64,000 bases of DNA from an uncultured bacterium (GCA_964549305.1 CAZJVM010000003.1:31380-95379); one strand, 5' to 3'. Numbered from the stretch's first letter, positions 7,423 through 29,616 are shown. Notes: a model not told the origin generated them from the letters alone. Made by a program: numbers and translations.

Positions 7423-7427
7423 GAACG

Positions 7428-10462: not shown

Positions 10463-10464
10463 AC

Positions 10465-11982: not shown

Positions 11983-12009
11983 GCAGGCAAGGAAGTTTCA
12001 GAACAACTC

Positions 12010-13191: not shown

Positions 13192-13227
13192 AAATCTGAA
13201 TTCGTCCTCAGAAACACTTAAAACTTT

Positions 13228-14640
13228 TTAAAAGTGAATAAGTTCCTTTATTTTGTCAAAATCCTCTTTGCCCAGCTCTTTTGTTACAAAAAGGATTATA
13301 AAATATATGAGAAGAAGCAAAGGGCATTTTATAAAAATATAAAAGCCGGAAGGTGAAACATAGCTTGTCAGCAGGAAGAGAATCCCGCCGGCAAAAATAA
13401 TTTTTATGAATGAGTTTATTTTGAGCGATACATGAAATTTTCGCTGAAGATAGATTAACATAATGATAATACCTATTAGAAATGTTGAGGTGGTTGCCAT
13501 TGCCGCGCCTGAAATTCCAAAGGATTTGATGAATAATAAATTAAAAATAATATCAATGGGAAGAATTAAAAGCGCAATATACATCGATGCTTTTGGATTT
13601 CCGCTGCCAACTATTATTGCCGAAAGCAAGGCGAGTATGGATGAAAAAGCGAGTCCGAAACTTAGAAACATCAACGGAAGATAAGCGTCGGTATATTGGT
13701 TCGTATAGAGCAATTCCAGTATTCCCGTTGCCGATGCGCTCATAATGACTGCAAGGGGAATGAGAAATATGAGCATATATCTCAGCGATTCGTTGAAGTA
13801 CTTTTCTATCTTGTAAAAATTCTTTTCCGCGACTGCCTTTGAAATCGATGGCAGGACTACAGTTGGAAAGCTTACGAATAAAATTGCGGGGACCTTGGCA
13901 ATGTTAACTGCCGCGGTATAAAGTCCCGTTTCCCTGTTGCTTCCGATAAGTGATTTTACGAAAAGAAGATCGATGCTCGAAATTGCCGTGATGCAAAAAA
14001 CATATAGAATGACCGTTGACGCGAAAGATAATATTTTTTTTAATTCGAAATTTTCATCTGACTCGGGATGTTTGCAGATTGACCTTGACAAAAAAAGCTC
14101 GGCAATTGCCGCGAATATAAGAGCAATGACAATTCCTTTAATTTTATAGCCGCCATATATAGCTATGAATACGAAAATAATTTTTGTCACTCCCTGAAAG
14201 GTGATAGAAACCGAAAGTCTTCCGAATTCCCTGATGCCGTTCATTGATGCCTGATAAATACCATTAATCGCGGTGGGAAGAATAATGAGAGTTGTAAGAA
14301 CGAGAAGGGGTGTAAGGGTCGTATCTTTCAGGAGGCGGGCTATTTGCGAACTGAATATTATTGCCGCTATTGTTACCACTCCCGCAAGAAGTGCCTGAAC
14401 TTTCAACCCTGTTTTGAGAATGGATTTTCCTATATTTGCAAACTCGGCGGTATACTTGGTTACTGCGGCATGCATCCCGGGCTGATAGGTCATATAGGTA
14501 ATATTCAGAAAGGACATCAAAACCCCGTATAAGCCATATTGTTCCACGCCGGCAAGTCTTGCAATGGCAATGTGTATTACGAAACTGCTCAATGCCAGAA
14601 AAATTCGGCTTACAGTGAGATATACTATTCCGCTTCCCAT
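13228..14640 (-). CDS. Polysaccharide/oligosaccharide flippase (Wzx/MOP superfamily).
   Basis: About 12-14 TM helices across 470 aa, with the typical MOP flippase hydrophobicity pattern. It sits inside the glycosyltransferase operon. Confidence 0.65.
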   Translation of the reverse strand: MGSGIVYLTVSRIFLALSSFVIHIAIARLAGVEQYGLYGVLMSFLNITYMTYQPGMHAAVTKYTAEFANIGKSILKTGLKVQALLAGVVTIAAIIFSSQIARLLKDTTLTPLLVLTTLIILPTAINGIYQASMNGIREFGRLSVSITFQGVTKIIFVFIAIYGGYKIKGIVIALIFAAIAELFLSRSICKHPESDENFELKKILSFASTVILYVFCITAISSIDLLFVKSLIGSNRETGLYTAAVNIAKVPAILFVSFPTVVLPSISKAVAEKNFYKIEKYFNESLRYMLIFLIPLAVIMSASATGILELLYTNQYTDAYLPLMFLSFGLAFSSILALLSAIIVGSGNPKASMYIALLILPIDIIFNLLFIKSFGISGAAMATTSTFLIGIIIMLIYLQRKFHVSLKINSFIKIIFAGGILFLLTSYVSPSGFYIFIKCPLLLLIYFIILFVTKELGKEDFDKIKELIHF

Positions 14641-14656
14641 TTTTAATTGATTGCTT

Positions 14657-15646
14657 TCAGTTTGAACAGTATTTGCAAAGATCTATATTCTTCCTTCTCA
14701 TTTTTTTCATTTCGTTTATTATCTTCAGCCTTTCGGGAGAATTGTAAATTTCATATATACTGCACTCGTTAACATTTCCTATTGTCCCTCTTTGATTCAA
14801 ATCCATACAACAGGGGCTTACATTTCCGTTCCAGTGTACGGCAAGTTGTCTTGTCACCGTATAACACAATCCTTTCCGCGCTTCTCCTTTTTCTGAAACT
14901 TCGATTTCTTCGCTTCCGTCCCACGAATGGAAACCGCGGGGAAGATATTTATCGGTTTTCCTGATTAATTGTTTGAAATCATCGGAAATGTTCTCGGGAT
15001 CTTCTATTATGGATACGAGACCTGTTTTTATATTCAGCCCTCGTTCCTTTATTTTATCAACAGTGTTATTTACATTCTGCAGAATATTTTCCCAGTTTGC
15101 CCCTCTTCTCCAATATTCAAAGGAATCCCTCGTTCCGCCGTCTATGCTCACAAGGACCATGTCGACAGCATTGCTTTCCAATATGGCATCGAGTTTTTTG
15201 CCTTTCAAAGAAACACCGTTTGTAAGGAGAGTTACATAGGGAAAAAGAATCTTTCTTTTTTTAAAGGAACCTATCATGGCGAGAAAATTTTCGAAATCGG
15301 GATGCAGAAGTGTTTCGCCTCCGTACCAAAGGGCGATATTGCTTACAGTAAGAAGTTTTGAGGAGACAATTTCATCCAATATTTTTTCAAGGGTCTTTTT
15401 TTCCATAAAACCCTGTGGCGCGTTTTGGTCAAGGGAGCACATCCTGCATTTAATGTTGCATAAGGAAGTGAACTCAATGTTAAGCCAGAGAAGACGAGCT
15501 TTTTTGGAGAATAACGATGAGAACTTAATGTAAGGAGAGCTGAAGAAAAACTTTTTATAAAGAGAACTGTTTAGAAATCTGCGGTATCGGTTTGTGAGAG
15601 TGTCGCTTTCTTTCCCTCTTTCATTTTTGCCGGTGCTTGAGCTCAT
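14657..15646 (-). CDS. Radical SAM/SPASM-twitch enzyme, third paralog.
   Basis: CNIKCRMC, YGGE, VSIDGGTRD. C-terminal cluster C...CC...C...CKYC. Confidence 0.8.
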   Translation of the reverse strand: MSSSTGKNERGKESDTLTNRYRRFLNSSLYKKFFFSSPYIKFSSLFSKKARLLWLNIEFTSLCNIKCRMCSLDQNAPQGFMEKKTLEKILDEIVSSKLLTVSNIALWYGGETLLHPDFENFLAMIGSFKKRKILFPYVTLLTNGVSLKGKKLDAILESNAVDMVLVSIDGGTRDSFEYWRRGANWENILQNVNNTVDKIKERGLNIKTGLVSIIEDPENISDDFKQLIRKTDKYLPRGFHSWDGSEEIEVSEKGEARKGLCYTVTRQLAVHWNGNVSPCCMDLNQRGTIGNVNECSIYEIYNSPERLKIINEMKKMRRKNIDLCKYCSN

Positions 15647-16325
15647 AGATGCTTATAACCTCTGTTAAGGTGTCTTTATTCTCTACATTGACAATTTCGA
15701 GCTTATTCTCATCAATTTCTTCTTCAAGGCCGGGATAATCTGCTATCGTTGACCAAAGGAGATAGATTCTTCCCTTTTCGGAAAGATGTTTGGGTGCTTC
15801 TCTCAGAAATGTGTGGCACACGTGGTCTTCGTAATCTCCGCCTCTGAATGCCCTTTCGTGCCAGCTTCTTGGGTTTCCGAGATAGAAAGGCGGGGTATAA
15901 AAAATCACGTCGAAAGTTTCACCCTCTACCGGTTCGAACATACTTCCTTCTTTTACCGTGAGTCTGTCCTGCAAACCGTTAATCAATCCGTTAATAGTTG
16001 CGCATCTTACCGCACTGGGATTGATGTCAGTTGCAGTCACGTTTTTTGAATACTGTGATGCAAAAACTCCTCCTATGCCCGAACCTGTGCCCAGGTCAAG
16101 CACGCGGTCAGTTTCCTTTATGCCAAGCTTATTGATGGTGTCGGCAAAATGAGGGCTGGTGGTGTAAAGTCCGGGATGAAAAACATTGGGAAGAACCACA
16201 ATGTACAGTCCCCGTATCATATTCAGACTTGGTTTATTTTTTCTGAAATAAAGAAGTTTAAGAATCCTGTATTTTATGAACTTGTATATGCGTCTTACAA
16301 AACTGAGCTTCTTTCCTCCCTCCAT
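15621..16325 (-). CDS. Class I SAM-dependent methyltransferase (MTS/HemK-like small domain).
   Basis: VLDLGTGSGIGG (motif I) and DVIFYTPPFY (NPPY-like motif IV). Confidence 0.6.
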   Translation of the reverse strand: MEGGKKLSFVRRIYKFIKYRILKLLYFRKNKPSLNMIRGLYIVVLPNVFHPGLYTTSPHFADTINKLGIKETDRVLDLGTGSGIGGVFASQYSKNVTATDINPSAVRCATINGLINGLQDRLTVKEGSMFEPVEGETFDVIFYTPPFYLGNPRSWHERAFRGGDYEDHVCHTFLREAPKHLSEKGRIYLLWSTIADYPGLEEEIDENKLEIVNVENKDTLTEVISIYELKHRQK

Positions 16326-17471
16326 CTAATTCTCCCTGTTTAAGTTCATTTGTAAAAAATTTTCAAGTTCCCGTGAAAATGCATCCAAAGAGAGGTTTTT
16401 ATTACTTTTTTTAATGTTTTCGGTGAATACTCCTTCGAGTTTTTCAGAGTAAAATTTAAGTATCTTTGAGGCAAGTTCTTCCGAATCTCCGGCTTCCGTA
16501 ATAAAGCCATTTTCACCTTCTTTTATTATATCAGGAAAACAACCTTTGTTTGAAGCAATTATCGGTTTGTTGCACGATAATGCCACCTGAAGCGCTCCAC
16601 TTCCCGTTGCGGAAAGATAAGGAAAAACGGCTATATCTGACGCAGACATATAAATGCCAATGCGGTTGCTCGATACAAATTTATCAACTATGATGACATT
16701 TTCTTTTAATCTCAGAGAGTCTATTTTTTGTTGTGCCGTTTCTCTTTCGTGCCAGAATTCTCCCACTATTAAAAGTTTGATATTGATTTTTTCCTTTATT
16801 GTCGCAAGGGCGTCGAGGAGATTATTCAATCCTTTATAGTACCTGACAATTCCGAAAAAAATTATAATGTTTTCATTTTCTTCAATACCGAGGATTTTTC
16901 TTGCTTTTTTCTTTTCAACATTCCATCCGTCATATTTGAAAACCGGAAGCCAGAGTTTTGCGGTTTTTGCCCTCGGTGAGATAGAAAGGAGTTTTTTCAT
17001 CTCTTCTTCCGAATGGACTACGATAAAATCCGCTTTTCTGAGGATTATTTTTGAAAGCAATTTTTTAAAAAAGTTTCTTTCGTGTTCAAATACATTGTGA
17101 CAGACAATCAGGACTTTTATGGATGAAAAGATATGAATCAGTGAAATAACCGTATAGAAATGAGGAAACCAAAACACTACCCACCATGGAATTACCACCA
17201 CATCAGCTTTAAAGCGTATGCACTTCCATATACAATTAATCCATGAGAAAGGATTGATTGAATCAAATGCCGAGAGTGCCTCCTTTTCATAGATAAAGGT
17301 AAAATCCGGCTCTTTGTCGGATTTGCCGGGAAAAAAAAGTTTCGGATATTGGCGTTTAAAGGTCAGAAAGAGTGTCTTGTTATTTTTTTTGAGCGCTTTG
17401 TAAAGGAGCGTTGTATTTAGTGAAATACCGCCTCTGTAAGGATAAGAGGGACCGATGAGCGCAATTCTCAT
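16326..17471 (-). CDS. Glycosyltransferase family 4.
   Basis: GT-B fold with the GT4 C-terminal signature region (...GFITEAGDSEELASKI). Confidence 0.75.
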   Translation of the reverse strand: MRIALIGPSYPYRGGISLNTTLLYKALKKNNKTLFLTFKRQYPKLFFPGKSDKEPDFTFIYEKEALSAFDSINPFSWINCIWKCIRFKADVVVIPWWVVFWFPHFYTVISLIHIFSSIKVLIVCHNVFEHERNFFKKLLSKIILRKADFIVVHSEEEMKKLLSISPRAKTAKLWLPVFKYDGWNVEKKKARKILGIEENENIIIFFGIVRYYKGLNNLLDALATIKEKINIKLLIVGEFWHERETAQQKIDSLRLKENVIIVDKFVSSNRIGIYMSASDIAVFPYLSATGSGALQVALSCNKPIIASNKGCFPDIIKEGENGFITEAGDSEELASKILKFYSEKLEGVFTENIKKSNKNLSLDAFSRELENFLQMNLNREN

Positions 17472-18445
17472 TTATCGGTCTCCGGACCTTTGTTTTTGTC
17501 GTTTTCCTTTAGCTCGATTTTTTTAACTCTGTATAGGGCTTCTTCGACAAGCTTTCTGTTTGCCGCTATGAGGTCGGCAATTACGCCTATTGTAACTATT
17601 ATAAATCCGATTATAAGAAGCACTGCCGAAATGATGAGGGACTGGATATGACCGTAAGGGCGGATGTTGAAAATGTAAAAATAGAGAAAGCGTATGAGCA
17701 GCAGAGAACCTACAAAGAAGACGGTGCTTCCCGCATAAACAAAAATTTTAAGGGGTTCATAAACCGTGTATATTCGCAATATGGTGGACATCGATTTTTT
17801 CAGATAACTCCAAATGCTTCTGAAAAGCCGTGAATCCCGTGTAGCGGGATTGGTTCTGACTGGCACGTGATGCACAGCGAGATTTTTCTTCCCTGCCTGA
17901 ATTATCGTTTCCAGTGTGTAGGTGAATCTCGATATAACATTGAGTTTTAAGGCAGATTCGCGGGAGAAAGCTCTGAATCCGCTTGTTGTATCAGGTACCG
18001 ATGTGCCGGAAAGCTGACGCACTGTCCAACTGCCCAGTCTTTGAAGAATTTTTTTGAGAAAAGAAAAATGTTCTATCTTCATTATTTCCCTGTCGCCAAT
18101 GACAATGTCGGCTTTTCCCTCAAGAATGGGCGCTACTAACTTTTCTATATCTTCGGCGCAATATTGGTTGTCGGCATCGGTATTGACGATGATATGAGCG
18201 CCTTTTCTCAACGCCTCGTCTAATCCCGCCATAAAAGCCTCCGCAAGGCCCTTATGTTTTGTAAATCTTACTATGTGATGGGCCCCGCATTTTTTTGCGA
18301 CTTGCGAAGTGTTATCACTGCTTCCGTCATCGACTATGAGAACCTCGATTTCGTCTATCCCTTCAATTTTCTTCGGAAGAGATTCAATAGTAGAGGGCAG
18401 TGTTTCCTCTTCGTTCAAGCAGGGTATCTGAATAATTAGTTTCAT
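17468..18445 (-). CDS. GT2 polyprenol-phosphate sugar synthase (DPM1/GtrB/ArnC-like).
   Basis: N-terminal GT-A domain (LIVDDGSSDNT; DAD/DxD) plus two C-terminal TM helices. This enzyme type supplies lipid-linked sugar donors for GT-C transferases. Confidence 0.75.
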   Translation of the reverse strand: MKLIIQIPCLNEEETLPSTIESLPKKIEGIDEIEVLIVDDGSSDNTSQVAKKCGAHHIVRFTKHKGLAEAFMAGLDEALRKGAHIIVNTDADNQYCAEDIEKLVAPILEGKADIVIGDREIMKIEHFSFLKKILQRLGSWTVRQLSGTSVPDTTSGFRAFSRESALKLNVISRFTYTLETIIQAGKKNLAVHHVPVRTNPATRDSRLFRSIWSYLKKSMSTILRIYTVYEPLKIFVYAGSTVFFVGSLLLIRFLYFYIFNIRPYGHIQSLIISAVLLIIGFIIVTIGVIADLIAANRKLVEEALYRVKKIELKENDKNKGPETDK

Positions 18446-18449
18446 TTGT

Positions 18450-18620
18450 TTATTTTTCCGAATCGTAACTTTTGTCAGACAGTTTATTTTCGACTATCAC
18501 ATTGAAATAATTTTTTGCCACCGTTGAAGTTCCCAAATCGGTAAAATGCACCGAATCAGTAAAATAATTTACCGTTGTTTTATCCACTTTCTTCGAATAT
18601 TCAAATTTAATGTAAGTCAT
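18450..18620 (-). CDS. Small hypothetical ORF (56 aa). Not in the ORF track.
   Basis: ATG at 18620-18618 and stop at 18452-18450. Sequence MTYIKFEYSKKVDKTTVNYFTDSVHFTDLGTSTVAKNYFNVIVENKLSDKSYDSEK. It ends 5 nt before the GT2 start. Only a weak RBS, no Cys. Confidence 0.2.
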   Translation of the reverse strand: MTYIKFEYSKKVDKTTVNYFTDSVHFTDLGTSTVAKNYFNVIVENKLSDKSYDSEK

Positions 18621-18868
18621 CTGAATTATTCCCGTAAAACCCTTTAACTTATTATACTGTATAAGAAACTATTATAAAGACTGTCAGGCAATAAATCGAA
18701 TAAAGTTTCTTTTAATTCAAGATCATGCCTGTCCAAAACAGATTTTTCATAACTTATATTTAACAGAGTCCCCTGATAAAAATACTGCTTAACTACGGAA
18801 AACAATACCTACACGGACAAAAGAACTTTGTGATGATTAGATATTTTTTTTAAAGACAACCTCTTTTA

Positions 18869-19999
18869 TTAATTTGTTTCCATTGTTTTTCTGAAAACAT
18901 TCAGAGTTTCTATGGCAGTCCTTCGCCACGAAAACTGTTTTACATGTTCAAGTCCCCCGGAAATCATTTTTTCCCTTAGCGGTTTGTCCTTCATAAGTGC
19001 CTTCATTTTTTCCGCAATGTCGGACACATTGTAAGGGTCCGCAAGCAGTGCGCACCCTCCGGCAACTTCGGGAAGCGCTGAGACCGTTGAAGTTACTACG
19101 GGTGCGCCGCAGGACATTGCTTCTATTACGGGTATTCCGAAAGACTCGTATTTTGACGCGAAAACAAAAAGGTCGGCATTGCGGTAAAGAGGCGGAAGTT
19201 CGTTGTTTGGAATAAATCCGGTAAATATAATGTCTTTTTCCCAGCGGGAAAATTGTGTGCCGAACCAGTCATTTTTTAAAAGAGGCCTTTTGTCTCCTAC
19301 CAAAACAAGCTGATGCTCGATTTTTTCGTTTTCTTTCAGCACCGCGAATGCCTCCACAAGGCCTTTTACATTTTTATGGCTTTTGGTACTTGCCACGGAA
19401 AGCACGAATTTTCCCCTGATTCCGTATTTTTTTCTGATGTCCTCCTTGTGGGGAGTTGATATATTGAAATTTTCCCCCACAGAATAAGGTATTACATCTA
19501 TAAGAGAAGAGTCAGCTTTGAAATAGTCGATTAGCTCTTTCCTGGTATATTGGGAAACAGTGATAATTCTGTCGCTCTTTCTCGAACTTCTCGGAATGAA
19601 AAAGTCGAGAGTCTTCAGGGTTAAATTGTCAAAGTCCCGCGGATGATGAATATATTTTATGCAGTGGATTGTTGTGACGGTTTTACATTTAATATTAAGC
19701 GGAGTGATATAGGCGGGAGAGAAAAGCAAGTCAACTGCTCTTTTTTTTGCCTGAAGCGGCAGAATAAATTGTTCCCAAAGCGTTTTTGAGATGCTTAAAC
19801 CTGATGATACAGGACATTGTATTTTTTCAGCTTTCCAGTTTTTAGAAAGAAATATTTCAAAGTTTTCTTTGTTGCAGAAAATAAAATATTCGTTTTCATT
19901 ATCGATGCGCAAAAGCTCTTCGAGGAGGTTTTCAAGATAAACCTGCATCCCTCCGTATCCTCCGCTCATTGAATATAGCGCGTTGATTCCAATTTTCAT
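18869..19999 (-). CDS. Glycosyltransferase family 4.
   Basis: Classic GT4 block ESFGIPVIEAMSCGAPVVTS. Confidence 0.8.
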   Translation of the reverse strand: MKIGINALYSMSGGYGGMQVYLENLLEELLRIDNENEYFIFCNKENFEIFLSKNWKAEKIQCPVSSGLSISKTLWEQFILPLQAKKRAVDLLFSPAYITPLNIKCKTVTTIHCIKYIHHPRDFDNLTLKTLDFFIPRSSRKSDRIITVSQYTRKELIDYFKADSSLIDVIPYSVGENFNISTPHKEDIRKKYGIRGKFVLSVASTKSHKNVKGLVEAFAVLKENEKIEHQLVLVGDKRPLLKNDWFGTQFSRWEKDIIFTGFIPNNELPPLYRNADLFVFASKYESFGIPVIEAMSCGAPVVTSTVSALPEVAGGCALLADPYNVSDIAEKMKALMKDKPLREKMISGGLEHVKQFSWRRTAIETLNVFRKTMETN

Positions 20000-20133
20000 A
20001 AACTTAAAAGTTCTTCCTCATTAATGTTGAAGTTACTGAATTTTTTTATAATTAGTCCGATTAGCCCTGTTCGAAATTTAAATTTTTTAAAAATTGAGTA
20101 TTCGACATAAATTTTAAATAAAATTATCCACAA

Positions 20134-21564
20134 ATGAAAATACTATTTATAAGCAATCAGCTTCTGGAGTTTACCAATTATGAACCACTGGGAATACTTT
20201 ATCTTTCATCATATCTGAAAAAACACGGACATTTGACGGCTTTTGCAAATTCCCGAATCAAGGAAGTCATTTCCGTAATGGACACTTTCCAGCCCGACAT
20301 AGTCGCCTACAGCGTGACAACGGGAATGCACGGCGATTTGATTTCCTTTAACAGAGAGCTCAAGAAAAGATATGATTTCTTGTCCCTTTTCGGAGGACCG
20401 CACGCGACTTTTTTCCCTCAAATGATAGAAGAAGAAGGAGTTGATGCTGTCTGCGTAGGGGAAGGCGAAGAGGCGATTGGCGAACTTGCCGACAAGATGT
20501 CCCGCAAGGAGGACATATCATCGGTTGAAAATCTTCTCGTAAAAACGTCTTTGGGTATAAAGAAAAACGATGTACGCCATCTCGTTGATGACCTTGATGT
20601 CTATCCATTTCCCGACAGAGAACTGATTTATTCGAAAAACAGCGAAATGAGGGATTCAAAAATAAAATTTTTTATTACAAACCGGGGATGCCCTTTCAAA
20701 TGCACATACTGTTTTAACCACTATTTTCATAAGATTTACGAAGGAAAGGGTAAAATTGTCAGATTAAGGTCCGTTGACAATGTAATAACGGAGATAGAAG
20801 AAGTGAGAGGAAAGTATCCCCTCGACTTTTTGAAGTTTGTGAACGATATTTTTGCCTTTACCGATGAATGGTTAGATGAATTTGCGGATAAGTACAGCAG
20901 AAAAATAGGACTTCCCTTTTACAGCATAGTAAGGGCGAATATGATGACTCCTTACAGGGCGAAGAAACTTCGCGAAGCAGGGTGTGTATCAGTGGCAATG
21001 GGAGTGGAAAGCGGGAATGATTCCATAAGAAACGACATTCTTAAAAGGTCGATGAAAAGAGAGGAAATAACCGAAGCGTGCAGGATGATCAAGGGAGAAG
21101 GGATAAAAATATTTACACAGAATATACTGGGACTTCCCGGTGAAACTTATGACAATGTCCTCGAAACTCTAAAGCTCAATATTGAATGCGCGCCGGACTA
21201 TGCCTGGGTGAGTCTTTACACACCATATCCGAATACGGAACTTGGTGAGAAGGCGCGCGAGATGGGGTTTTTTGACGGAAATATAGATGACTTTCCTGCT
21301 ACATACCATATCGGGTCACCGATGAAGATACCCGATAAAAAGAGAATCGAGAGACTGCAGAAACTCTTTGCCGTGGCAGTTGAGTTTAAAACATTCCGAC
21401 CTCTACTTCCCTATCTTGTTAAAATGCCCGGCGGAAAAATTTATGAATTCATCAGGAAGGTGTGGAAAGGGTATGCATTCAAGAGCAGGATTTATCCCGT
21501 GAAAATGTCTTTTCCGGAACTTTTCAAACAGGCGATAATTTTTATCTTCAGCAAGGGTGGATAA
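20134..21564 (+). CDS. B12-binding radical SAM protein (class B rSAM).
   Basis: N-terminal Rossmann-like B12-binding domain (MKILFISNQ...). CPFKCTYC motif. Confidence 0.8.
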   Translation: MKILFISNQLLEFTNYEPLGILYLSSYLKKHGHLTAFANSRIKEVISVMDTFQPDIVAYSVTTGMHGDLISFNRELKKRYDFLSLFGGPHATFFPQMIEEEGVDAVCVGEGEEAIGELADKMSRKEDISSVENLLVKTSLGIKKNDVRHLVDDLDVYPFPDRELIYSKNSEMRDSKIKFFITNRGCPFKCTYCFNHYFHKIYEGKGKIVRLRSVDNVITEIEEVRGKYPLDFLKFVNDIFAFTDEWLDEFADKYSRKIGLPFYSIVRANMMTPYRAKKLREAGCVSVAMGVESGNDSIRNDILKRSMKREEITEACRMIKGEGIKIFTQNILGLPGETYDNVLETLKLNIECAPDYAWVSLYTPYPNTELGEKAREMGFFDGNIDDFPATYHIGSPMKIPDKKRIERLQKLFAVAVEFKTFRPLLPYLVKMPGGKIYEFIRKVWKGYAFKSRIYPVKMSFPELFKQAIIFIFSKGG

Positions 21565-21570
21565 AACAGA

Positions 21571-22974
21571 TTATCCGAACCACTTTTTTTCCGTTGCCGT
21601 TCGAAGGTCTGATTTTTTTCCCTTGATTATATCCTCTGCCACATTGAGTCCCATTTCAACGGAATGGTCCATATTGTTGTATCTGAAAAGTGCGTTTCTT
21701 CCGAAATAGTGAAGATTGTCAAATCCCTCGAGATAGTCTTTTATTACCGTTACGTGTTGACGGTAGTATATGTCATAAATGGGATAGGCGTGTTTAAGCT
21801 TGCAGAGAAAATAGCTTTCCACATCATTTTCACCTATCAGACCCATTTGCACAAGGTCTTCCGTTACTCTGTCAACGATTCTCTCATCATTCATATTCCA
21901 GATTCTGTCTCCGAAAAAGCAGGTGACTTCGGCGCATATAATTGTCTTTCTCGGGGGCGCGGAGTTTTCGTTGAAATTTTTGAACTCAGAAAACCGGTTG
22001 CTTATAAATTTTCTCTCGGGCATATAAATCCAGTGATTTGCACTCAAACGCGGTCTGTTAACAACAAGATAGACAAAAACGATTGAGCGGAAAAAAAGCT
22101 CTGAGCAGGACTGTTTGATTTTCCCTTCGGGTTCGGGTGTTATGAGAGAAACAAGGTCTGTAAGGGGGATAGTTGAACAGAAATAATCGTATTCTTCCTT
22201 TTTAGGCGATGAGCCGTTTTCATAAGAAATTGAGAGAATTCTATTCTTGTCTGTTTCAATCTCTTTCACTTCAGCGCCCGTAATAACCTTGTTTCCCATA
22301 GCAAGTATTTTCTCTCTGTATTTTTCGCATATCGTCCCTATCCCGCCGTTTTCAGGATAGGAAAATTCAGAGACATAGGTGCGGGGAATATTTTTGGGTC
22401 TAAAAAGCGTTTTCATTATCACATCTGTGAGATTGAGCAGAGTTATCCTCTGTGAGGCATAATCCGCGGATATTTCCGTACAGGCGAGTCCCCAGGTTTT
22501 TTCCGTATATTCCTTGAAAAAAATTTCATAAAGCTTGTTGCCGAATCTCTTGCTTACCCAGTTTTCAAATGAATTGTCGGGAATGGACTGTAATATTATT
22601 TTGGCATAAACATAGTCATAGAAAATTTTAAGAAGTGTAAAGAAGGGCATCTTGGAAATGACATCCATTGCGCTTAAAGGGTAGATGAAATATCTGTTTT
22701 TAAGATATATTTCACTTTTTCTGATTTTCTTGACGGTTTTGTCGTCAAGGACTTCTCTTATATGGTCAACAAGCTCTTTTTTTTCTGAATGAAACCTGTG
22801 GGGTCCAAGGTCGCAGGTGAATTCGCCCTTTTTGAAACTTCGCGCGAGACCTCCCACATAATCTTCTTTTTCGATGACAGTAACGTCAAACCCCGCTTTG
22901 GAAAGTTCATACGCGCAGGTCAATCCCGCGAGCCCGGCGCCTAAAACAGCAACTTTTCTGTTTCTTTTATCCAT
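21571..22974 (-). CDS. FAD-dependent oxidoreductase, UDP-galactopyranose mutase (Glf)-like.
   Basis: N-terminal dinucleotide fold VAVLGAGLAGLTCAYEL...VIEKEDYVGG. LYEIFFKEYTEKTWGL resembles Glf LYEAFFKGYTIKQWGM, and the C-terminal FGRNALFRYNNMD block also matches. It is about 70-100 aa longer than classical Glf. Confidence 0.5.
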   Translation of the reverse strand: MDKRNRKVAVLGAGLAGLTCAYELSKAGFDVTVIEKEDYVGGLARSFKKGEFTCDLGPHRFHSEKKELVDHIREVLDDKTVKKIRKSEIYLKNRYFIYPLSAMDVISKMPFFTLLKIFYDYVYAKIILQSIPDNSFENWVSKRFGNKLYEIFFKEYTEKTWGLACTEISADYASQRITLLNLTDVIMKTLFRPKNIPRTYVSEFSYPENGGIGTICEKYREKILAMGNKVITGAEVKEIETDKNRILSISYENGSSPKKEEYDYFCSTIPLTDLVSLITPEPEGKIKQSCSELFFRSIVFVYLVVNRPRLSANHWIYMPERKFISNRFSEFKNFNENSAPPRKTIICAEVTCFFGDRIWNMNDERIVDRVTEDLVQMGLIGENDVESYFLCKLKHAYPIYDIYYRQHVTVIKDYLEGFDNLHYFGRNALFRYNNMDHSVEMGLNVAEDIIKGKKSDLRTATEKKWFG

Positions 22975-23110
22975 TTTGAGTTAATATAACAGATATAATA
23001 ACTTCAGCAAAACTTTACTTTTAGAAAAATTATTTCGACAATAATCACTAATTTTTCAATGATATTTTTAGTTTGCCGATTGTGTTGTTTTTTAAAAAGG
23101 TAAAATCCCA

Positions 23111-23863
23111 ATGGAAAAAGATGTTTATTCCGAGTTTCTGAATCTCGAAAAAAATCACTGGTGGTTTCTTGGAAGAAGAAGCATTTTCTTTAGCCTTTTG
23201 GATAAATTTTTGGACGGCAGAAAAGATTTGAATATAATCGACGTGGGATGCGGTCCGGGGGAGATGATTGAACCCCTTGAAAAATACGGTAATGTAACTG
23301 CCTGTGATATCACATTCGATGCCCTTGATTTTTGTTCGGAAAGGGGTTTCAACCTGCTTATGCTTGCAGACGGAAGCAGACTTCCCGTTAAGGATGAAAG
23401 TTATGACCTTCTCTCCCTCTTCGATACACTTGAGCATATCGACGATGATGTGTCAGTCCTCAGGGACTCATACCGTGTGCTCAAAGACGGTGCATTCGTG
23501 ATTATAACGCTTCCCGCGTATAATTTTCTTTTCAGCAATAACGACCGCGCGGCACATCATAAAAGGCGTTACAGCGCCGGCGAGATAAGCAGAAAGGCGC
23601 AGGTTGCCGGATTTAATGTAAGAAAGGTTACCTATATCAATACATTTCTTTTCCCGGTGATTTTTTCTGCGCTAATTTTGATAAAAATAAAGGAAGCTAT
23701 TTTTCCTGTTGCAAATCCGGATAAAACGAATATTTCTTTTTCGGTTCCCCAAATAATTAACAGCATACTGGCATCTATTTTTTGTTTTGAAAGCAGGATT
23801 CTCAAGAATATATCATTTCCATTCGGACATTCTCTCGTATGCATAGCGCAAAAGAAAAAATAA
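23111..23863 (+). CDS. Class I SAM-dependent methyltransferase.
   Basis: IIDVGCGPGEM motif I and a LFDTLEHI region, with a hydrophobic C-terminus. Confidence 0.7.
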   Translation: MEKDVYSEFLNLEKNHWWFLGRRSIFFSLLDKFLDGRKDLNIIDVGCGPGEMIEPLEKYGNVTACDITFDALDFCSERGFNLLMLADGSRLPVKDESYDLLSLFDTLEHIDDDVSVLRDSYRVLKDGAFVIITLPAYNFLFSNNDRAAHHKRRYSAGEISRKAQVAGFNVRKVTYINTFLFPVIFSALILIKIKEAIFPVANPDKTNISFSVPQIINSILASIFCFESRILKNISFPFGHSLVCIAQKKK

Positions 23864-25350
23864 TACTTTTTCATCCTCGAACCGCTTTTTCCTCCACCGG
23901 TTCCATCGTGCCTCTTCATCTTCTTGCGGTGTGCAGGCATTTGGACAGCCAAAAATTCGATGTGCTCATAATAAACGGTGAAATGGAGCACGACTACAGG
24001 GAAAAGCTCAAAGAGCATTGCAAGGATGCCCTGTGCATCGGCATCGGATTTATGACCGGATATCAGATTAAACAGGCAATCGAGGCATCTAAGATTGCCC
24101 GTGATGTTAACCCGGGCATAAGGGTTATATGGGGCGGATGGCATCCCTCTGTTTCAACTGAGCAGACTCTCGAACATCCCCTCGCTGACATATTAGTGCG
24201 TGGACAGGGAGATGTTGTTTTCTCCGAACTTGTAAACGCGATTTCCGAAGGAAGGGATATTTCCGCCATAAAGGGACTTGCTTTCAGGAAAAACGGTGCG
24301 ATAACAATAACCGATGATAATTATCTCGAAGATTTAAAATCGTTCGATTCTCTGCCTTTCCAACTTCTTCCTCTCAACGATTATATCAGGGGGACGCGCC
24401 TCGGACTTAGAAATATTCATTACTACTCAAGTCAGGGGTGTCCGTTCAGATGTTCGTTCTGTGCCGATTCCCTTGTTAACAAAAGAAGGTGGGTAAGCAT
24501 CTCAAATGAACAGTTTATCGAAGATGTGAAATTTCTCAGGAAAGAATGCAATATAGATTCGGCAACGGTCATAGACAGTAATTTTTTCGTTGATATGAAA
24601 AGAATCAGAGGGCTTGCAGACCTTCTTGTGAAAGAAAATCTTGGCGTAAAGTATGGCGGTTTGAACGGTCGCGCGGCACAGTTGAAAAAAATTGAAACTT
24701 CCGAATGGAAGCATTTTTCAGAAGCGGGATTCAAAGAACTTTTCGTCGGTGTGGAATCCGCTCTTCAGGAACAGCTGAATTTCATAAAAAAGGATACGAA
24801 GGCGACTGATGTACTCGAACTGGCAGACAACTTAAAGGGTGTTGATATAAGTCTCACTTTTTCTCTTATAATGGGACTGCCAGGGTCTTCAGAGAGAATG
24901 AATGATATATCCGCCGACCTTGACAGGGAACTTGAAAGCGCTTTATCTCTTACGAAAAAGGTATTCGAGGCAAACCCAGGCGCAACTGCCTGGTTTTTCC
25001 TCTATACTCCCTATCCCGGGACTCCGCTTTTTGACAGAAGTGTTGAAAACGGTTTCAAAAAGCCCGTAAGTCTCGAAGAATGGGAGGGGATGGACCTTGG
25101 AAACATAAACATACCGTGGATTTCAAAGACATTCGCAAACAAAGTTTCCTTCTTCACGGAATTCATTTTCTATTTTTTGCTGGAGGAAAGGTTGAATAAT
25201 TTTCTGAAAAGCAAAGGTTCCGTCATGAAAAAAGTTATTTATATCATTTTGCATAACCTTGCCAGATTCAGATGGAAAACCGGTTTTTTCTCATTGCGAT
25301 TTGAGAATTCCCTTGTTAAATTCCTTAGAAAGTTGTCAGGGGGAGTTTAA
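23839..25350 (+). CDS. B12-binding radical SAM protein (class B rSAM), second copy.
   Basis: N-terminal B12-binding domain. CPFRCSFC motif. Overlaps the preceding MTase by 25 nt. Confidence 0.8.
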   Translation: MHSAKEKIILFHPRTAFSSTGSIVPLHLLAVCRHLDSQKFDVLIINGEMEHDYREKLKEHCKDALCIGIGFMTGYQIKQAIEASKIARDVNPGIRVIWGGWHPSVSTEQTLEHPLADILVRGQGDVVFSELVNAISEGRDISAIKGLAFRKNGAITITDDNYLEDLKSFDSLPFQLLPLNDYIRGTRLGLRNIHYYSSQGCPFRCSFCADSLVNKRRWVSISNEQFIEDVKFLRKECNIDSATVIDSNFFVDMKRIRGLADLLVKENLGVKYGGLNGRAAQLKKIETSEWKHFSEAGFKELFVGVESALQEQLNFIKKDTKATDVLELADNLKGVDISLTFSLIMGLPGSSERMNDISADLDRELESALSLTKKVFEANPGATAWFFLYTPYPGTPLFDRSVENGFKKPVSLEEWEGMDLGNINIPWISKTFANKVSFFTEFIFYFLLEERLNNFLKSKGSVMKKVIYIILHNLARFRWKTGFFSLRFENSLVKFLRKLSGGV

Positions 25351-25382
25351 AGGTTTCCGTTAAGAAAAGACATTTTTTTGTC

Positions 25383-26438
25383 TTACGCTTTATGCAAATA
25401 GCTTTTGTCGTATTCCATAAGAATATGAGCGGATGTTTTGATTTTTTCCGACAACGACATTTCCTCAGGTATGGACTTGCCCGTAAGTTTTCTCAGAAGT
25501 TTCGATGCTCTTTTCATCTCATCACCGCCTTTTACGCAGTTTTTAAGGATTTCTTCTGCAGTTTCAAAAAAAAGCGATGTTGAATTAACGGCAAGATTTG
25601 CTCTTTTGCGGGTTTTTAAATTGTAACTTACATACCTGATATAATCATTCACTTTAAAACCACGATTAATTTTTCCCGAGAGTAAATCAAGAAATTTTTC
25701 AGTTGTCTCTTTTGCTTCAGAAATCGGGTAATGCCCCGCGTAATCCCCTTCAAATCTTGAAGCAATTGCGTCGCGGAGAAATCGAGAAAATTCTGAGCTT
25801 ATTTCCCTTTCATACTCTAATGCCTTTTCAGAACATTTTTTAAGACTGTAAAAGTTTTTCCACTCTCCGTAGGAGGCATTGTTTTCTTTAAAGAATAAAA
25901 ATGCCTGAAATGCCTGAATTGCCGATTTTTCAAAATAGGGCATTCCGGAGTCGCCTTCGCTTATTCCCTTGATTAAAAATTTATAGGCCCGTTTCAGGTT
26001 ATTTACCGGTTCCGGAGTCTTCATCTTATCAAGCGTTCTGTCGAGACCGTTCTCTTTTTTTAAAGTTTTTCCCGCAAGTGTGGTGAGATGAAATTTCAGA
26101 GCTTTATCCCAAACAATGATAAATTCGATATCTCTGATAACATTTATCCTTGATTTTAATTGGGCAAGGAGATGGTTTTTCCGCGCGGAAATGCTTTGCC
26201 ATAAGGAATCGAAGACAAGAAAGATATCTACATCGCTTGAAACTTCGCTTTTCCGGTTTTTCTCGATGGTTTTTCCCTCTGCGTAACAAAGACTTCCTCC
26301 GAGAATAATCGAGCATTTAGGGAATTCAGAGGATATTGATTCAACTAATGATTCAATTTCTTTCTTAATTTCATTGTTTAAGGGATTTTCTTTATCAATG
26401 AGAAATGTTTCGGATTGAATCAATTTGCTTTCAGTCAT
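25383..26438 (-). CDS. Hypothetical protein with a Pol-beta-like nucleotidyltransferase-fold motif.
   Basis: GGSLCYAEG...SDVDIFLVF (G[GS]...DxD) near the N-terminus, with a helical C-terminal region. Confidence 0.3.
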   Translation of the reverse strand: MTESKLIQSETFLIDKENPLNNEIKKEIESLVESISSEFPKCSIILGGSLCYAEGKTIEKNRKSEVSSDVDIFLVFDSLWQSISARKNHLLAQLKSRINVIRDIEFIIVWDKALKFHLTTLAGKTLKKENGLDRTLDKMKTPEPVNNLKRAYKFLIKGISEGDSGMPYFEKSAIQAFQAFLFFKENNASYGEWKNFYSLKKCSEKALEYEREISSEFSRFLRDAIASRFEGDYAGHYPISEAKETTEKFLDLLSGKINRGFKVNDYIRYVSYNLKTRKRANLAVNSTSLFFETAEEILKNCVKGGDEMKRASKLLRKLTGKSIPEEMSLSEKIKTSAHILMEYDKSYLHKA

Positions 26439-26538
26439 AAGGTAAATGCCTTGATAAAATATTATGCCTTTATTATAGAAATTATACCGTGTTAATGAAA
26501 TAATAATGACAATAATAAATTAAAAAAGAGAGATAATT

Positions 26539-27687
26539 ATGTCTTCGAAAGTATCCCTTGTATCGTGTGCCGAATATGAAAAGGAAAAAGTTGATTCAGC
26601 GGTAAAGGAAGCAGTAGGCCTTTTAGGCGGAATCGAAAAATTCGTATCAGGCGGAAACAGGGTGCTTATCAAGCCGAATCTCCTTTCGGGAAAACCTCCG
26701 GAAAAAGCCGTAACAACCCATCCTATGGTGCTTGCCGCGGTAATTGATTTGGTAAGGGAGGCGGGAGGCATTCCCGTAGTTGGAGACAGTCCGGCAACGG
26801 AAGGCAAGGGAAGTCTCGAGAAATTCAAAAAGGTTTGCGAAATCACCGGCATTCTCGATGTCGTTGAAAAGAAAGAGGTCGAACTTGCCCATTTCAGCTC
26901 ATCGAGAATCGAAATCGAAAACCCCGAAGGGAAAATATTTAAGAAATTTACTGTTACCGAAGAGATTAAAAAATGTGATGTCCTTATTAATCTTTGTAAG
27001 CTCAAGACGCACGGACTGACGCTTCTCACGGGGGCGGTGAAGAACCTTTTCGGATGCGTGCCGGGGCTTTTAAAGGGACAGCTTCATATGCGCGCCCCCC
27101 ACAGGCCCGAGTTTTCACAGATGCTCGTTGACCTTTATCAGGTTGTAAAGCCCTCGATTAATATAATGGACGCCGTTGTGGGAATGGACGGCAACGGTCC
27201 CGGAAACGGAAACCCGAGAAAAGTGGGGGCAGTCATAGCAAGTATCGATGCAGTCGCGCTGGATTCCGTTGCCTGCCAGATAATCGGAAAAAGCCCCTAT
27301 GCCCTCGACACATGCAAAATTGGGGAATCACAGGGAATAGGTGTCGCGAATCCCCATGAGATAGAAGTGCTTGGAGACGATGTGGGAAAATTTTTAGTAT
27401 CGGACTATGAAGTGCTTGTAGATGATGTTACGGACAAACCACTTATGAGGTTTATTATCGCGCTTATGCGTGAGAGGACAACGGCTAAACCGGTAGTTGA
27501 CAAGAAGAAATGTACAGGGTGTAAAACCTGCCACGTTGCCTGCGTGCCGGAGGCGATAACTATGGCCGATGGCTATCCGGTGATGGATTACGATAAATGT
27601 ATAAAATGTTACTGTTGTCACGAAGTTTGTCCCGAAGGAGCAATCAACCTTAAAAAAGGGCTTCTTTACAGGCTGCTTTCAAGATAA
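26539..27687 (+). CDS. DUF362-family protein with a C-terminal 2x[4Fe-4S] ferredoxin domain.
   Basis: CTGCKTCHVACVPEAI and CIKCYCCHEVCPEGAI ferredoxin motifs after a DUF362-like body. Confidence 0.65.
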   Translation: MSSKVSLVSCAEYEKEKVDSAVKEAVGLLGGIEKFVSGGNRVLIKPNLLSGKPPEKAVTTHPMVLAAVIDLVREAGGIPVVGDSPATEGKGSLEKFKKVCEITGILDVVEKKEVELAHFSSSRIEIENPEGKIFKKFTVTEEIKKCDVLINLCKLKTHGLTLLTGAVKNLFGCVPGLLKGQLHMRAPHRPEFSQMLVDLYQVVKPSINIMDAVVGMDGNGPGNGNPRKVGAVIASIDAVALDSVACQIIGKSPYALDTCKIGESQGIGVANPHEIEVLGDDVGKFLVSDYEVLVDDVTDKPLMRFIIALMRERTTAKPVVDKKKCTGCKTCHVACVPEAITMADGYPVMDYDKCIKCYCCHEVCPEGAINLKKGLLYRLLSR

Positions 27688-27702: not shown

Positions 27703-29616
27703 TTGTCGTCTAAAGACAGCAGAGCGTATCTTGCCGCAATATTCCTCATCTTTGTTTTTCATTTTGTCTGTGCCGCCGGATTTTTTTCCAATGTGGATAT
27801 AGATTCAGGATTTCCCGTATTGAATGACGATTACTCCATTCATTTCGGCCACGTGGACCCTGTAAAGGAATTCTTCAGGGACAGTTTCAGGTTGTGGGGA
27901 TATGACCCTTTTTATATGGCGGGATTGCCTAAGTCCACGGTTTTTGACGCAGACGCAAAGTCGCCGGAAATAATAGGTGTTATCTTTTCTTTTGCCGATT
28001 CGGCAACGGTTTACAATATCTATATCTTTCTGAATTACATTCTTGCTCCTCTGCTTTTTCTCTGGTCGATTTTCAATTTCGGATTAAGAAGATGGGGGCT
28101 TGCCACGGGATTTGCCGCAGGCGTATTTTACTGGTGGGCATATCCGGCATTCAGGTTCAATCTCGCGGGACAATTCGCATTCATCTTCGTATCTCATATT
28201 ACATTGCTTATATTTTCTCTCTTTTACCGTTATGTGGATTCCGGTAAATTCCGCTTCATAGCGCTTTGCGGTGTAATCGGAGCTATTGCCCTTTCGGTAC
28301 ACATCCTTGCGCCCATAAACATCGCGGTGGGGTCGCTCATCCTTTATGCAGTTGCCTTTAAAAAAATGAGCGGGAAACAACACGCGGGGCTTTTTGCCTG
28401 CCTTGCTTTTATTCTCATTGCGAACAGCCCCTGGGTGATACCTTTTATACGTTTCTACGGAATGAATAATCTTGCTGATATCGACTGGTTTTTCGGCGCC
28501 ACCAATCCTTTCTTTTTTCTCGAAGCGTATTTTCCCGGAGGGGCAATCTACAGATATCTTCGCCTCGCTATTTTGATTGCCTCGATTGGCGGTTTTATGA
28601 AATGGAAAAAAGAAAAAAATATCCTCTTTTATCCCGTGCTCGGCAACGCGCTCATACTTTTTATCTATTCATACTTCGGCGCCTATTCAACGCTTACATT
28701 TCTGCAAAATCCATGGCGCTACGAATTTGAACTGAATCTTTTTCTCCTTGCCCCGGCGGCAGTTTATCTGAATTCACTTTTTGAAAAGAACGGTTTCAGC
28801 AGAAAAATTTTACCTCTTGCCGTTTCCCTCTTCCTCATTGTCTGCCTTTTTCCGCTAAATGCTTTTAAGTCAGCAAAACGTCTCATTCCCCGTTACAGAA
28901 ATGAAAGAATTGTAAAATATGACCGTCTCACCCCTTTGAAAAACGGAGAGGTGGAGTATTCATACGAGGAACTTCCTCACTCATCGCTTCCTCCTGCGGG
29001 GTATGAGTTTATTGAATGGATTAAACGGAATACCACAAAAGATGCGCGGATAATGCTTGAAGATTCCTGCTGGCAGTCTCGTCACGCCTATTGGGGTTCG
29101 CATCTTCCGGCAATGCTTCCAACGCTCACCGGAAGGGAATATATCGGCGGGCCAATCCCACAGTATTTTATGGTGCACCATTATGCGAGTTTTCAGGACG
29201 GTTTTTTCTGCGGCAAGTATCTCGATGAATACGACGAAGAAGAATTCCTTGAAAAGACAGATCTCTATAACATCAAGTGGATAGTTGCCTTTACGCCCTA
29301 CTCGAGAAATTTTCTGGAAAAAATTCCGGAAAGAGTTCACCTTATTGACAGGGTTGATAAATTCTATCTTTACGAGATTACGCGAAAGCAGGATTTTTTC
29401 CTCGAGGGAAGGGGAGAGATAAAATCCGCTTACAATCACCTTTATCTTTCAGGGCTTTCCGAAGGCGAGGATATAATAATCAAATATCACTGGATAAAAA
29501 CGCTTAAAACATCGCCTCCGAGAAAGTTAAGCGAATTTAAAATAAAGGATGACCCTGTGGGCTTTATAAAGGTTGAGAATGTTCCCTCTGAGATTGAAAT
29601 CTATAACGGATATTAA
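27703..29616 (+). CDS. Large polytopic membrane protein with a C-terminal soluble domain (GT-C-like architecture).
   Basis: About 11 TM helices followed by a roughly 230-aa hydrophilic domain. Coupled to the DUF362 gene (15-nt gap). Confidence 0.35.
   Translation: MSSKDSRAYLAAIFLIFVFHFVCAAGFFSNVDIDSGFPVLNDDYSIHFGHVDPVKEFFRDSFRLWGYDPFYMAGLPKSTVFDADAKSPEIIGVIFSFADSATVYNIYIFLNYILAPLLFLWSIFNFGLRRWGLATGFAAGVFYWWAYPAFRFNLAGQFAFIFVSHITLLIFSLFYRYVDSGKFRFIALCGVIGAIALSVHILAPINIAVGSLILYAVAFKKMSGKQHAGLFACLAFILIANSPWVIPFIRFYGMNNLADIDWFFGATNPFFFLEAYFPGGAIYRYLRLAILIASIGGFMKWKKEKNILFYPVLGNALILFIYSYFGAYSTLTFLQNPWRYEFELNLFLLAPAAVYLNSLFEKNGFSRKILPLAVSLFLIVCLFPLNAFKSAKRLIPRYRNERIVKYDRLTPLKNGEVEYSYEELPHSSLPPAGYEFIEWIKRNTTKDARIMLEDSCWQSRHAYWGSHLPAMLPTLTGREYIGGPIPQYFMVHHYASFQDGFFCGKYLDEYDEEEFLEKTDLYNIKWIVAFTPYSRNFLEKIPERVHLIDRVDKFYLYEITRKQDFFLEGRGEIKSAYNHLYLSGLSEGEDIIIKYHWIKTLKTSPPRKLSEFKIKDDPVGFIKVENVPSEIEIYNGY

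Follow-up and report, generated by a model that had tools for sequence, protein, structure and literature searches.

What product is encoded where two radical S-adenosylmethionine (SAM) enzymes of the B12-binding type flank a flavoprotein and a conventional methyltransferase? The question is raised by positions 20134 to 25350 of a 64,000-nucleotide stretch of DNA from an uncultured bacterium (GCA_964549305.1, CAZJVM010000003.1:31380-95379), which was analyzed at its full length and is referred to here as the window. Four genes, here named rSAM1, FLAV, MT11, and rSAM2, make up this block (Table 1). A preliminary description had read them as two B12-type radical SAM enzymes bracketing a UDP-galactopyranose mutase (Glf)-like flavoprotein and a conventional SAM methyltransferase inside a glycan locus. 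This arrangement was borne out: all four open reading frames (ORFs) and both radical SAM cluster motifs are present, MT11 matches Methyltransf_11 (65 bits), and flippase, glycosyltransferase (GT2 and GT4), MBOAT, and SPASM radical SAM genes lie nearby.

We propose, at roughly even odds for the picture as a whole, that the four genes constitute a block for sugar tailoring within a locus for envelope glycans and make a methylated furanose decoration, the radical SAM enzymes being lineage-specific additions to an older mutase-plus-methyltransferase cassette. All four proteins fall in known superfamilies, and none falls in a characterized family. In the proposed pathway, FLAV would convert a nucleotide-activated sugar from its pyranose to its furanose form, and a neighboring GT2 with C-terminal transmembrane helices would load a sugar onto polyprenyl phosphate. 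MT11 would O-methylate the sugar at the membrane face, joined in other lineages by a second methyltransferase, X. Both rSAM1 and rSAM2 would abstract hydrogen from unactivated C-H bonds, in the same sugar or in neighboring residues, and would most likely transfer a methyl group from methylcobalamin (C-methylation). Outside the cell, polytopic GT-C-like membrane proteins would finally join the decorated sugar to the glycan.

FLAV as a predicted pyranose/furanose mutase

By its sequence relations, predicted fold, and active-site residues, FLAV is very probably a nucleotide-sugar pyranose/furanose mutase. Among PDB sequences, its sole full-length match was the UDP-galactopyranose mutase (UGM) of Trypanosoma cruzi (TcUGM; 4dsg, E = 3.6e-23), with other UGMs next. 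An AlphaFold (AF2) model of FLAV was built from 20 homologues (predicted local distance difference test [pLDDT], 86; predicted template modeling score [pTM], 0.85). When this model was compared with the PDB by Foldseek, the best 34 matches were all UGMs of the eukaryotic type (E = 8e-33, TM-score of 0.84). The active site of TcUGM consists of H62, V63, R176, N201, Y317, R327, Y395, R423, Y429, and N433 (PMC4192007). After conversion of the TcUGM numbering from the HMMER alignment (chain index = native + 3), FLAV residues H59, R176, Y317, R327, Y397, R426, Y432, and N434 align with TcUGM H62, R176, Y317, R327, Y395, R423, Y429, and N433, respectively. These eight residues (8/10 of the TcUGM list) and W315 are invariant across 20 homologues of 42 to 87% identity, and G12, G14, and G17 of the FAD-binding GxGxxG motif are invariant in the family alignment. 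FLAV is a cytoplasmic FAD protein with the UGM fold that keeps the residues with which TcUGM holds the diphosphate and assists catalysis at flavin N5. The Glf-like assignment, for which the preliminary description had offered conservation of the active site as a check, is upheld by these residues and folds.

A galactose substrate fared less well: the mutase type stands, and the sugar need not be galactose. On alignment, the catalytic and diphosphate residue set is kept in FLAV, and the sugar-contact set is not. The two active-site exceptions are TcUGM V63, which is R60 in FLAV, and TcUGM N201, a sugar-hydroxyl ligand, which is V201 in FLAV and falls in a low-confidence loop of the model. In the uridine region, TcUGM N157 and Q103 are replaced by T and S, respectively. 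These substitutions, like the observations taken up with the alternatives below, count against the reading proposed here, and the substrate of FLAV may be neither UDP-galactose nor any UDP-sugar; the sugar could be a hexose or a pentose.

The FLAV family is bacterial and archaeal and comprises 1,763 clusters at 50% identity (E ≤1e-30); 1,315 homologues were found. Among the best 150 representatives of the family, seven are fusions (P0515, P0489, P0499, P0456, P0501, P0420, and P0483). One of these matches human UDP-glucuronate decarboxylase (UDP-xylose synthase; E = 1.9e-103) over its N-terminal 312 residues, which hints that some family members may handle UDP-pentoses, a lead drawn from this one fusion. 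No true UDP-xylose synthase orthologue was found among the genes beside FLAV homologues (best, 36% identity). The other six fusions carry membrane domains that resemble, by eye, those of lipid-sugar flippases, of the GtrA type or another. In six loci (L059, L063, L065, L066, L070, and L073), FLAV homologues are likewise flanked by a small membrane domain similar to the one in P0483.

A widespread cassette of the predicted mutase and methyltransferases

A scan of one genome per species retrieved 80 loci with FLAV homologues (32 to 49% identity) from Planctomycetota, Solirubrobacterales and other Actinomycetota, Myxococcales, Altiarchaeota, Bacteroidota, Acidobacteriota, and others; with no relative above 49% identity, the source species is absent from that collection. 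In 24 of these loci, methyltransferase X (∼300 residues, Methyltransf_23) lies immediately downstream of FLAV. The order FLAV-X-MT11 is found in 21 of the 80, with MT11 homologues (32 to 46% identity) ∼0.9 kb downstream of FLAV. A DPM-like GT2 gene often lies upstream of the FLAV-X cassettes, with YfhO or PMT_2 genes of the GT-C type nearby; YfhO, PMT_2, or GT87 genes likewise adjoin FLAV homologues in loci related to that of the window. No B12-binding radical SAM gene was found within 10 kb of the cassette in any of the 24 loci with X.

Judged from these sequences, the old and widespread unit is a mutase with two SAM methyltransferases, accompanied by GT2 and GT-C genes, and the conserved partners of FLAV are SAM methyltransferases rather than radical SAM enzymes. 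Such a gene set fits the lipid-carrier route of glycosylation by three components (PMC7389260). Because MT11 belongs to the FLAV-X-MT11 unit, the link between methylation and the mutase does not depend on the radical SAM enzymes. A search of the window for gene X returned only a weak cross-match to MT11, and X is also absent from the close relatives. MT11 has hydrophobic segments at residues 172 to 226, and this tail suggests that the enzyme may work at the membrane.

Family and chemistry of the radical SAM pair

By domain content, rSAM1 and rSAM2 have the class B architecture (B12-binding plus radical SAM) that had been assigned to them. Radical_SAM (PF04055) and B12-binding (PF02310) scored 78.4 and 56.9 bits in rSAM1 and 40.3 and 44.1 bits in rSAM2, all above the Pfam gathering scores (29.5 and 32.1, respectively). 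The cluster cysteines are C186, C190, and C193 in rSAM1 (invariant in family alignment A2) and C201, C205, and C208 in rSAM2. The two proteins are distant paralogues (24% identity by BLASTP).

The rSAM1 family is glycan associated as a family. Among 8,000 candidates scored, >2,800 homologues were retrieved (∼45% identity) from many (anaerobic) phyla, with a constant length of ∼475 residues; rSAM2 had 449 homologues. We examined the neighborhoods of rSAM1 family members in 80 metagenome loci, 45 of them at least 6 kb long. Across the 80 loci, the recurrent neighbors were GT2 (15 loci), GT4 (12), NAD epimerase/dehydratase (10), another GT2 (8), DegT aminotransferase (8), and SPASM radical SAM (6), followed by GT9 and an HldE-like kinase/nucleotidyltransferase. 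The commonest GT2 neighbor lies within 200 bp of the rSAM1 homologue in seven loci. Of the 45 longer loci, 28 contain glycan-type neighbors (GT2, GT4, epimerase, DegT, GT9, or HldE-like) and 13 contain at least two B12-binding radical SAM genes. One polysaccharide locus from a Nitrospirota metagenome-assembled genome (MAG; GCA_049303235.1, L008, positions 1437 to 21175) carries six such genes, interspersed among genes for GT2, GT4, asparagine synthase-like, epimerase, and methyltransferase proteins.

The chemistry of the pair is less easily read. Both proteins were compared with NCBIfam models of methylases (PhpK, KedN5, HpnR, TsrM-type, MgmA/QCMT, C-methyltransferases of ribosomally synthesized and posttranslationally modified peptides, BzaD, and Sden_1168) and of nonmethylating enzymes (HpnJ, BchE, ladderane radical SAM, and AprD4). 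Neither protein reached a curated subfamily cutoff of either kind, the best scores being about a quarter of the cutoff or less. For rSAM1, the highest scores (score/cutoff, in bits) were HpnJ, 120/578; PhpK, 104/600; and BchE, 104/481. For rSAM2, they were BchE, 126/481; HpnJ, 102; and Sden_1168, 92/575. The AprD4 model scored 73/500. Against solved structures, rSAM1 matched by sequence both the methylase MgmA/QCMT (9CCB) and the sugar diol-dehydratase AprD4, which is B12 independent. The AF2 model of rSAM1 (pLDDT, 91) had MgmA (9ccb, E = 4.9e-23) as its best Foldseek match and AprD4 as its second, followed by TsrM, OxsB, CysS, and TokK, and the best PDB sequence matches of rSAM2 were TokK and MgmA. 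Assignment of methylase or nonmethylase status from such best matches was rejected, as the scores are mixed and so far below the cutoffs.

A 2026 review reports that the largest similarity groups of B12-binding radical SAM enzymes are unexplored, the biggest clusters being without a characterized or solved member, and that every characterized group includes C-methyltransferases (PMC12931638). No diagnostic motif marks the base-off binding of cobalamin by class B enzymes, and proteins of the AprD4 type, whose architecture is similar, do not bind it (PMC12931638). The same review places the nonmethylating enzymes in the largest similarity group together with methylases, with no sequence or structure features separating them (PMC12931638); thus, subfamily assignment cannot settle the chemistry. 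For this reason, the subfamily check suggested in the preliminary description is not decisive.

The strongest alternative is that the radical SAM enzymes remodel sugars without methylating them, by ring contraction, carbocycle formation, 1,2-diol dehydration or deoxygenation, epimerization, or C-C bond formation, and we regard it as unlikely, though far from negligible. Precedents include ring contraction or carbocycle formation, proposed for HpnJ on a hopanoid-linked glucosamine and shown for OxsB on a deoxynucleotide, and dehydration of the AprD4 type. The top NCBIfam match of each protein is a nonmethylase, and AprD4, which acts on the sugar paromamine, is the best PDB match of the rSAM1 family profile (E = 8.5e-30). 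Since SAM methyltransferases dedicated to that task are already part of the cassette, the radical SAM enzymes could add other chemistry. However, the nonmethylase scores are nearly tied with those of methylases, and the alignment with AprD4 is confined to the radical SAM core, whereas rSAM1 scores above the Pfam threshold for B12-binding. Among the activities demonstrated for the class, methylation is by far the most common (PMC12931638).

On balance, we put C-methylation by rSAM1 and rSAM2 at somewhat less than an even chance. Precedent exists in Fom3 and GenK for C-methylation of an exocyclic carbinol carbon. Of the C-methylated and/or O-methylated furanoses predicted in the preliminary description, a methylated furanose decoration is plausible, and C-methylation is unproven.

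Conservation of the block and its alternatives

Two metagenome contigs (L001 and L002) carry all four genes in the same order at 81 to 87% identity. Because these orthologues keep the order and distant homologues exist for each gene, the genes are real rather than chance ORFs. A third locus (L003, 62 to 66% identity) has the tail-to-tail rSAM1/FLAV pair and MT11, without rSAM2. A fourth (L007, 50 to 64% identity) has overlapping MT11 and rSAM2 genes followed by a PMT_2-like gene, as well as tail-to-tail FLAV and rSAM1 followed by an adjacent orthologue of the GT2 with transmembrane helices and a PMT_2 gene. The rSAM1/FLAV junction measures 6 to 11 nucleotides in the window and in these four loci, and the MT11/rSAM2 overlap recurs in L001 and L007. 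In an intermediate metagenome locus (L089), the order GT2-FLAV-X-MT11 is joined by an rSAM1 homologue (54% identity) in convergent orientation, and YfhO genes lie on either side. Divergent B12-binding radical SAM genes (25 to 29% identity to rSAM1) are also immediate neighbors of FLAV homologues, in an uncultured archaeon (L009) and in a Gemmatimonadota MAG (L042). GT2 is present at each of these two loci; L009 also has epimerases and PMT_2, and L042 has a SPASM radical SAM.

Alternatively, the bracket could have no pathway meaning, with the mutase and MT11 acting on different glycan residues from the radical SAM enzymes and the shared gene order reflecting recent common ancestry. The block forms three transcription units on both strands rather than one operon, L003 lacks rSAM2 though the other three genes are present, and the FLAV-X-MT11 cassette occurs without any radical SAM gene in 21 species loci. 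Moreover, a B12-binding radical SAM gene adjoins FLAV in only 2 of the 80 species loci, and FLAV is not a recurrent neighbor across the metagenome loci of the wider rSAM1 family; the coupling may accordingly be loose. In contrast, the adjacency of FLAV and B12-binding radical SAM genes recurs in the archaeon, the Gemmatimonadota MAG, and L089, which argues for a functional link. The tail-to-tail junction was kept while surrounding genes were rearranged in L003 and L007, and the overlap of MT11 and rSAM2 remains 25 nucleotides in L007 at 50 to 62% protein identity. We therefore consider mere proximity improbable, and decidedly less credible than a functional block. None of the four proteins is close to a characterized enzyme, and their functions are predicted from sequence and models.

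Finally, it is very improbable that FLAV is a redox flavoenzyme of the amine-oxidase, protoporphyrinogen-oxidase, or phytoene-desaturase type acting on a lipid or amine: its strongest Pfam match is Amino_oxidase (96 bits), homologues are annotated as protoporphyrinogen oxidase in source records, such oxidases follow the UGMs in the fold search (TM-score of 0.77), and FLAV does not pass the prokaryotic UGM equivalog TIGR00031 (69 bits versus 304), but the diphosphate-binding R327, Y397, and Y432 and the catalytic His-loop and Arg residues H59, R176, and R426 are family invariant, non-UGM flavoenzymes align by sequence with only the first ∼60 residues of FLAV in the PDB search, and the neighbors are glycan genes, one homologue being fused to the UDP-xylose synthase. 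The remaining family matches are Pfam NAD_binding_8, a marginal GLF (26.7 bits versus a gathering score of 26.3), and NCBIfam NF005548 (PRK07208.1-4, "hypothetical protein"), which FLAV passes (402 bits versus 389).

Layout of the locus and neighboring genes

The coordinates of the block and of its principal neighbors are collected in Table 1. rSAM1 and FLAV are convergent, with a 6-nucleotide gap, FLAV and MT11 are divergent, and the end of MT11 overlaps the start of rSAM2 by 25 nucleotides. Promoter and terminator scans of positions 18400 to 26600 gave signals at or below shuffled expectation and were not used. By Pfam and NCBIfam, the surrounding locus encodes a MurJ/Wzx-type flippase, two GT4 enzymes, the GT2 with C-terminal transmembrane helices, an MBOAT protein, LtaS/sulfatase-like proteins, three SPASM radical SAM enzymes, a HemK-like methyltransferase, and several polytopic membrane proteins. 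The window also carries GGDEF and sigma-54 activator genes, which together with the MurJ gene point to a bacterial source.

Table 1. Positions of the four-gene block, its cluster motifs, and selected neighbors in the window
Feature	Position	Strand	Description
rSAM1	20134-21564	+	476 aa; class-B-type radical SAM enzyme: N-terminal B12-binding domain, radical SAM core, helical C-terminal domain
CPFKCTYC	20689-20712	+	[4Fe-4S] cluster motif of rSAM1, residues 186-193; single occurrence
FLAV	21571-22974	-	467 aa; FAD-dependent, related to eukaryotic-type UGM; probable nucleotide-sugar pyranose/furanose mutase
MT11	23111-23863	+	250 aa; class I SAM-dependent methyltransferase, hydrophobic C-terminal region
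rSAM2	23839-25350	+	503 aa; second class-B-type radical SAM enzyme
CPFRCSFC	24439-24462	+	Radical SAM cluster motif of rSAM2, residues 201-208; single occurrence
GT4	18869-19999	-	Glycosyltransferase, divergent from rSAM1; Pfam Glycos_transf_1, 121 bits
GT2	17468-18445	-	Two C-terminal transmembrane helices (segments at 232-297); resembles polyprenyl-phosphate sugar synthases (AglJ, PpgS, ArnC type)
Conserved neighbor	25383-26438	-	351 aa; by eye, nucleotidyltransferase-like G-G-S ... D-x-D motif
Membrane protein	27703-29616	+	Polytopic, candidate GT-C-type transferase by inference; at least 7 transmembrane segments, then a soluble C-terminal domain of ∼245 aa (hydropathy)
Membrane protein	8531-10462	+	Polytopic, probable membrane glycosyltransferase; weak NCBIfam and Pfam matches

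The lipid-linked part of the proposed pathway is less well defined by family matches. The best NCBIfam models of the GT2 are AglJ, PpgS, PgfS, dolichyl-phosphate hexose transferase, and ArnC, all below cutoff. The membrane protein at 8531 to 10462 matches the LA_3751/LA_3752 putative glycosyltransferase family below cutoff (73.5 bits, E = 1.5e-20) and, weakly, Pfam GT87 (E = 1.3e-3). No family match at E values up to 5 was obtained for the membrane proteins at 27703 to 29616 and 10465 to 11982. Beyond the weak GT87 and LA_3751-family matches, the membrane proteins of the window show no GT-C family, a further point to be set beside those above.

Downstream of rSAM2, the 351-residue conserved neighbor has homologues beside the module in L001, L002, L003, and L007, and its GGSL and SDxD motifs do not vary in alignment A3. 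It had no Pfam, NCBIfam, or PDB match, even when a profile of four sequences was used. Next to it, a gene for a DUF362 protein (26539 to 27687, + strand), which carries a 2x[4Fe-4S] ferredoxin domain at its C terminus, is better conserved between the window and L001 and L002 than any other gene (88 to 90% identity). The syntenic loci at greater distance lack this gene; its product could feed electrons to the radical SAM enzymes or be unrelated. Upstream of the block, the 423-bp gap between the GT2 and GT4 genes (18446 to 18868) contains frame-shifted fragments of the C-terminal third of a GDSL-lipase-like gene. Because an intact 377-residue GDSL-lipase-like gene occupies the equivalent position in L001 and L002, this segment is a decayed pseudogene.

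Other radical SAM genes are found in the region. The three SPASM-domain proteins of the glycan locus (1038 to 2150, 12010 to 13191, and 14657 to 15646, all on the - strand) reach no curated cutoff, and one of them adjoins two sulfatase/LtaS-like proteins (2292 to 4256 and 4295 to 5677). A "variant radical SAM" (NF045502, 180 bits versus 125; related to the MSMEG_0568 family) at 34239 to 35351 (- strand) adjoins a GT9-like gene. For the GT4 next to rSAM1, the highest-scoring model was the MSMEG_0565 glycosyltransferase family. By these matches, the window contains two members of one poorly understood gene-neighborhood family, 15 kb apart.

Chelatase genes and the cobalamin link

The preliminary description connected the cobalamin need of the radical SAM pair to a CobN-type chelatase operon 15 kb away. 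The chelatase genes (42631 to 50840, - strand; together with 39976 to 41913) in fact lie 17 to 25 kb from the block, and the connection is weak. The large subunit (46938 to 50840, 1300 residues) passes TIGR02025 BchH (1038 bits versus 829) and fails TIGR02257 CobN (733 versus 822), and an AprD4-like architecture can be cobalamin free. Three partners, two ChlI-like and one ChlD-like, score best on TIGR02442 "putative cobaltochelatase," below cutoff. The only other tetrapyrrole-type methylase in the window, the TP_methylase at 56027 to 56728, was rejected as a corrin enzyme and is RsmI. Overall, the 64-kb window neither shows nor excludes cobalamin synthesis.

We note that the chelatase cluster adjoins a P-type ATPase, in an apparently nonphototrophic bacterium. 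A 253-residue HemF-like coproporphyrinogen oxidase homologue (32472 to 33233, - strand) scores 122 bits against a cutoff of 297; the oxygen-dependent HemF type would not be expected in a stretch with so many radical SAM enzymes.

Significance

We found no description in the literature of B12-type radical SAM proteins as envelope-glycan tailoring enzymes, of the bacterial UGM-like family to which FLAV belongs, or of a system combining a UGM with radical SAM enzymes. To our knowledge, no biosynthetic enzyme has been described for a C-methylated or ring-remodeled furanose glycan decoration. It is conceivable, though doubtful, that the rSAM1 family consists of cobalamin-dependent radical SAM enzymes that act on lipid- or nucleotide-linked sugars of envelope glycans, making C-methylated or ring-remodeled furanoses together with a UGM-like mutase, and that the FLAV-X-MT11-GT2-GT-C set is a widespread methylated-furanose pathway in Planctomycetota, Actinomycetota, and others.

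Radical SAM enzymes that depend on B12 are among the largest unexplored enzyme groups, and this locus ties one large family of them to envelope-glycan synthesis. It also gives that family a defined and testable setting, in which a mutase and a methyltransferase are accompanied by a lipid-carrier GT2 and by membrane transferases. If rSAM1 and rSAM2 do C-methylate or remodel furanoses, they would represent new bacterial glycan chemistry and catalysts for unactivated carbohydrate C-H bonds. The FLAV family is an uncharacterized prokaryotic counterpart of the eukaryotic UGMs, which are studied as drug targets, and its operon with two methyltransferases is an entry point to function.

Comparison with known systems

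Like class B C-methyltransferases that act on sugars or activated substrates (GenK, GenD1, and Fom3; MgmA/QCMT, 9CCB), rSAM1 and rSAM2 have a B12-binding domain and a CxxxCxxC core, and rSAM1 has a helical C terminus. Unlike those enzymes, to which they are 15 to 20% identical, they pass no methylase model, and their genes lie among glycan genes instead of in a cluster for an antibiotic or a cofactor. The architecture is shared as well with HpnJ, OxsB, and AprD4 (PDB entry 6FD2), all three of which act on sugar rings, HpnJ on a lipid-linked sugar in hopanoid cyclitol ether formation. In contrast to these three, rSAM1 scores far below the family cutoffs, leaves the AprD4 N-terminal domain unaligned, and has no hopanoid, oxetanocin, or aminoglycoside gene context.

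FLAV and the eukaryotic-type UGMs (T. cruzi, PDB entries 4DSG and 4DSH; Aspergillus fumigatus) share the fold, a full-length sequence relation, the eight active-site residues, the GxGxxG motif, and a cytoplasmic location. They differ in that FLAV is ∼21% identical, comes from a bacterial and archaeal family, reads GPH in the GGH loop, and belongs to NF005548 rather than to a UGM model.

Extracytoplasmic glycosylation by three components has been described, in which a GT2 of the CsbB/GtrB/ArnC type works with a flippase and a GT-C of the YfhO/ArnT/PMT type (PMC7389260). The described systems are without a mutase, methyltransferases, or radical SAM enzymes that tailor the sugar, and their flippase part was not identified in the window, though a MurJ/Wzx-type flippase is listed in the locus. 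The likeness lies in the GT2 of the window, with its C-terminal transmembrane helices, and in the YfhO, PMT_2, or GT87 genes and the DPM-like GT2 that stand beside FLAV homologues.

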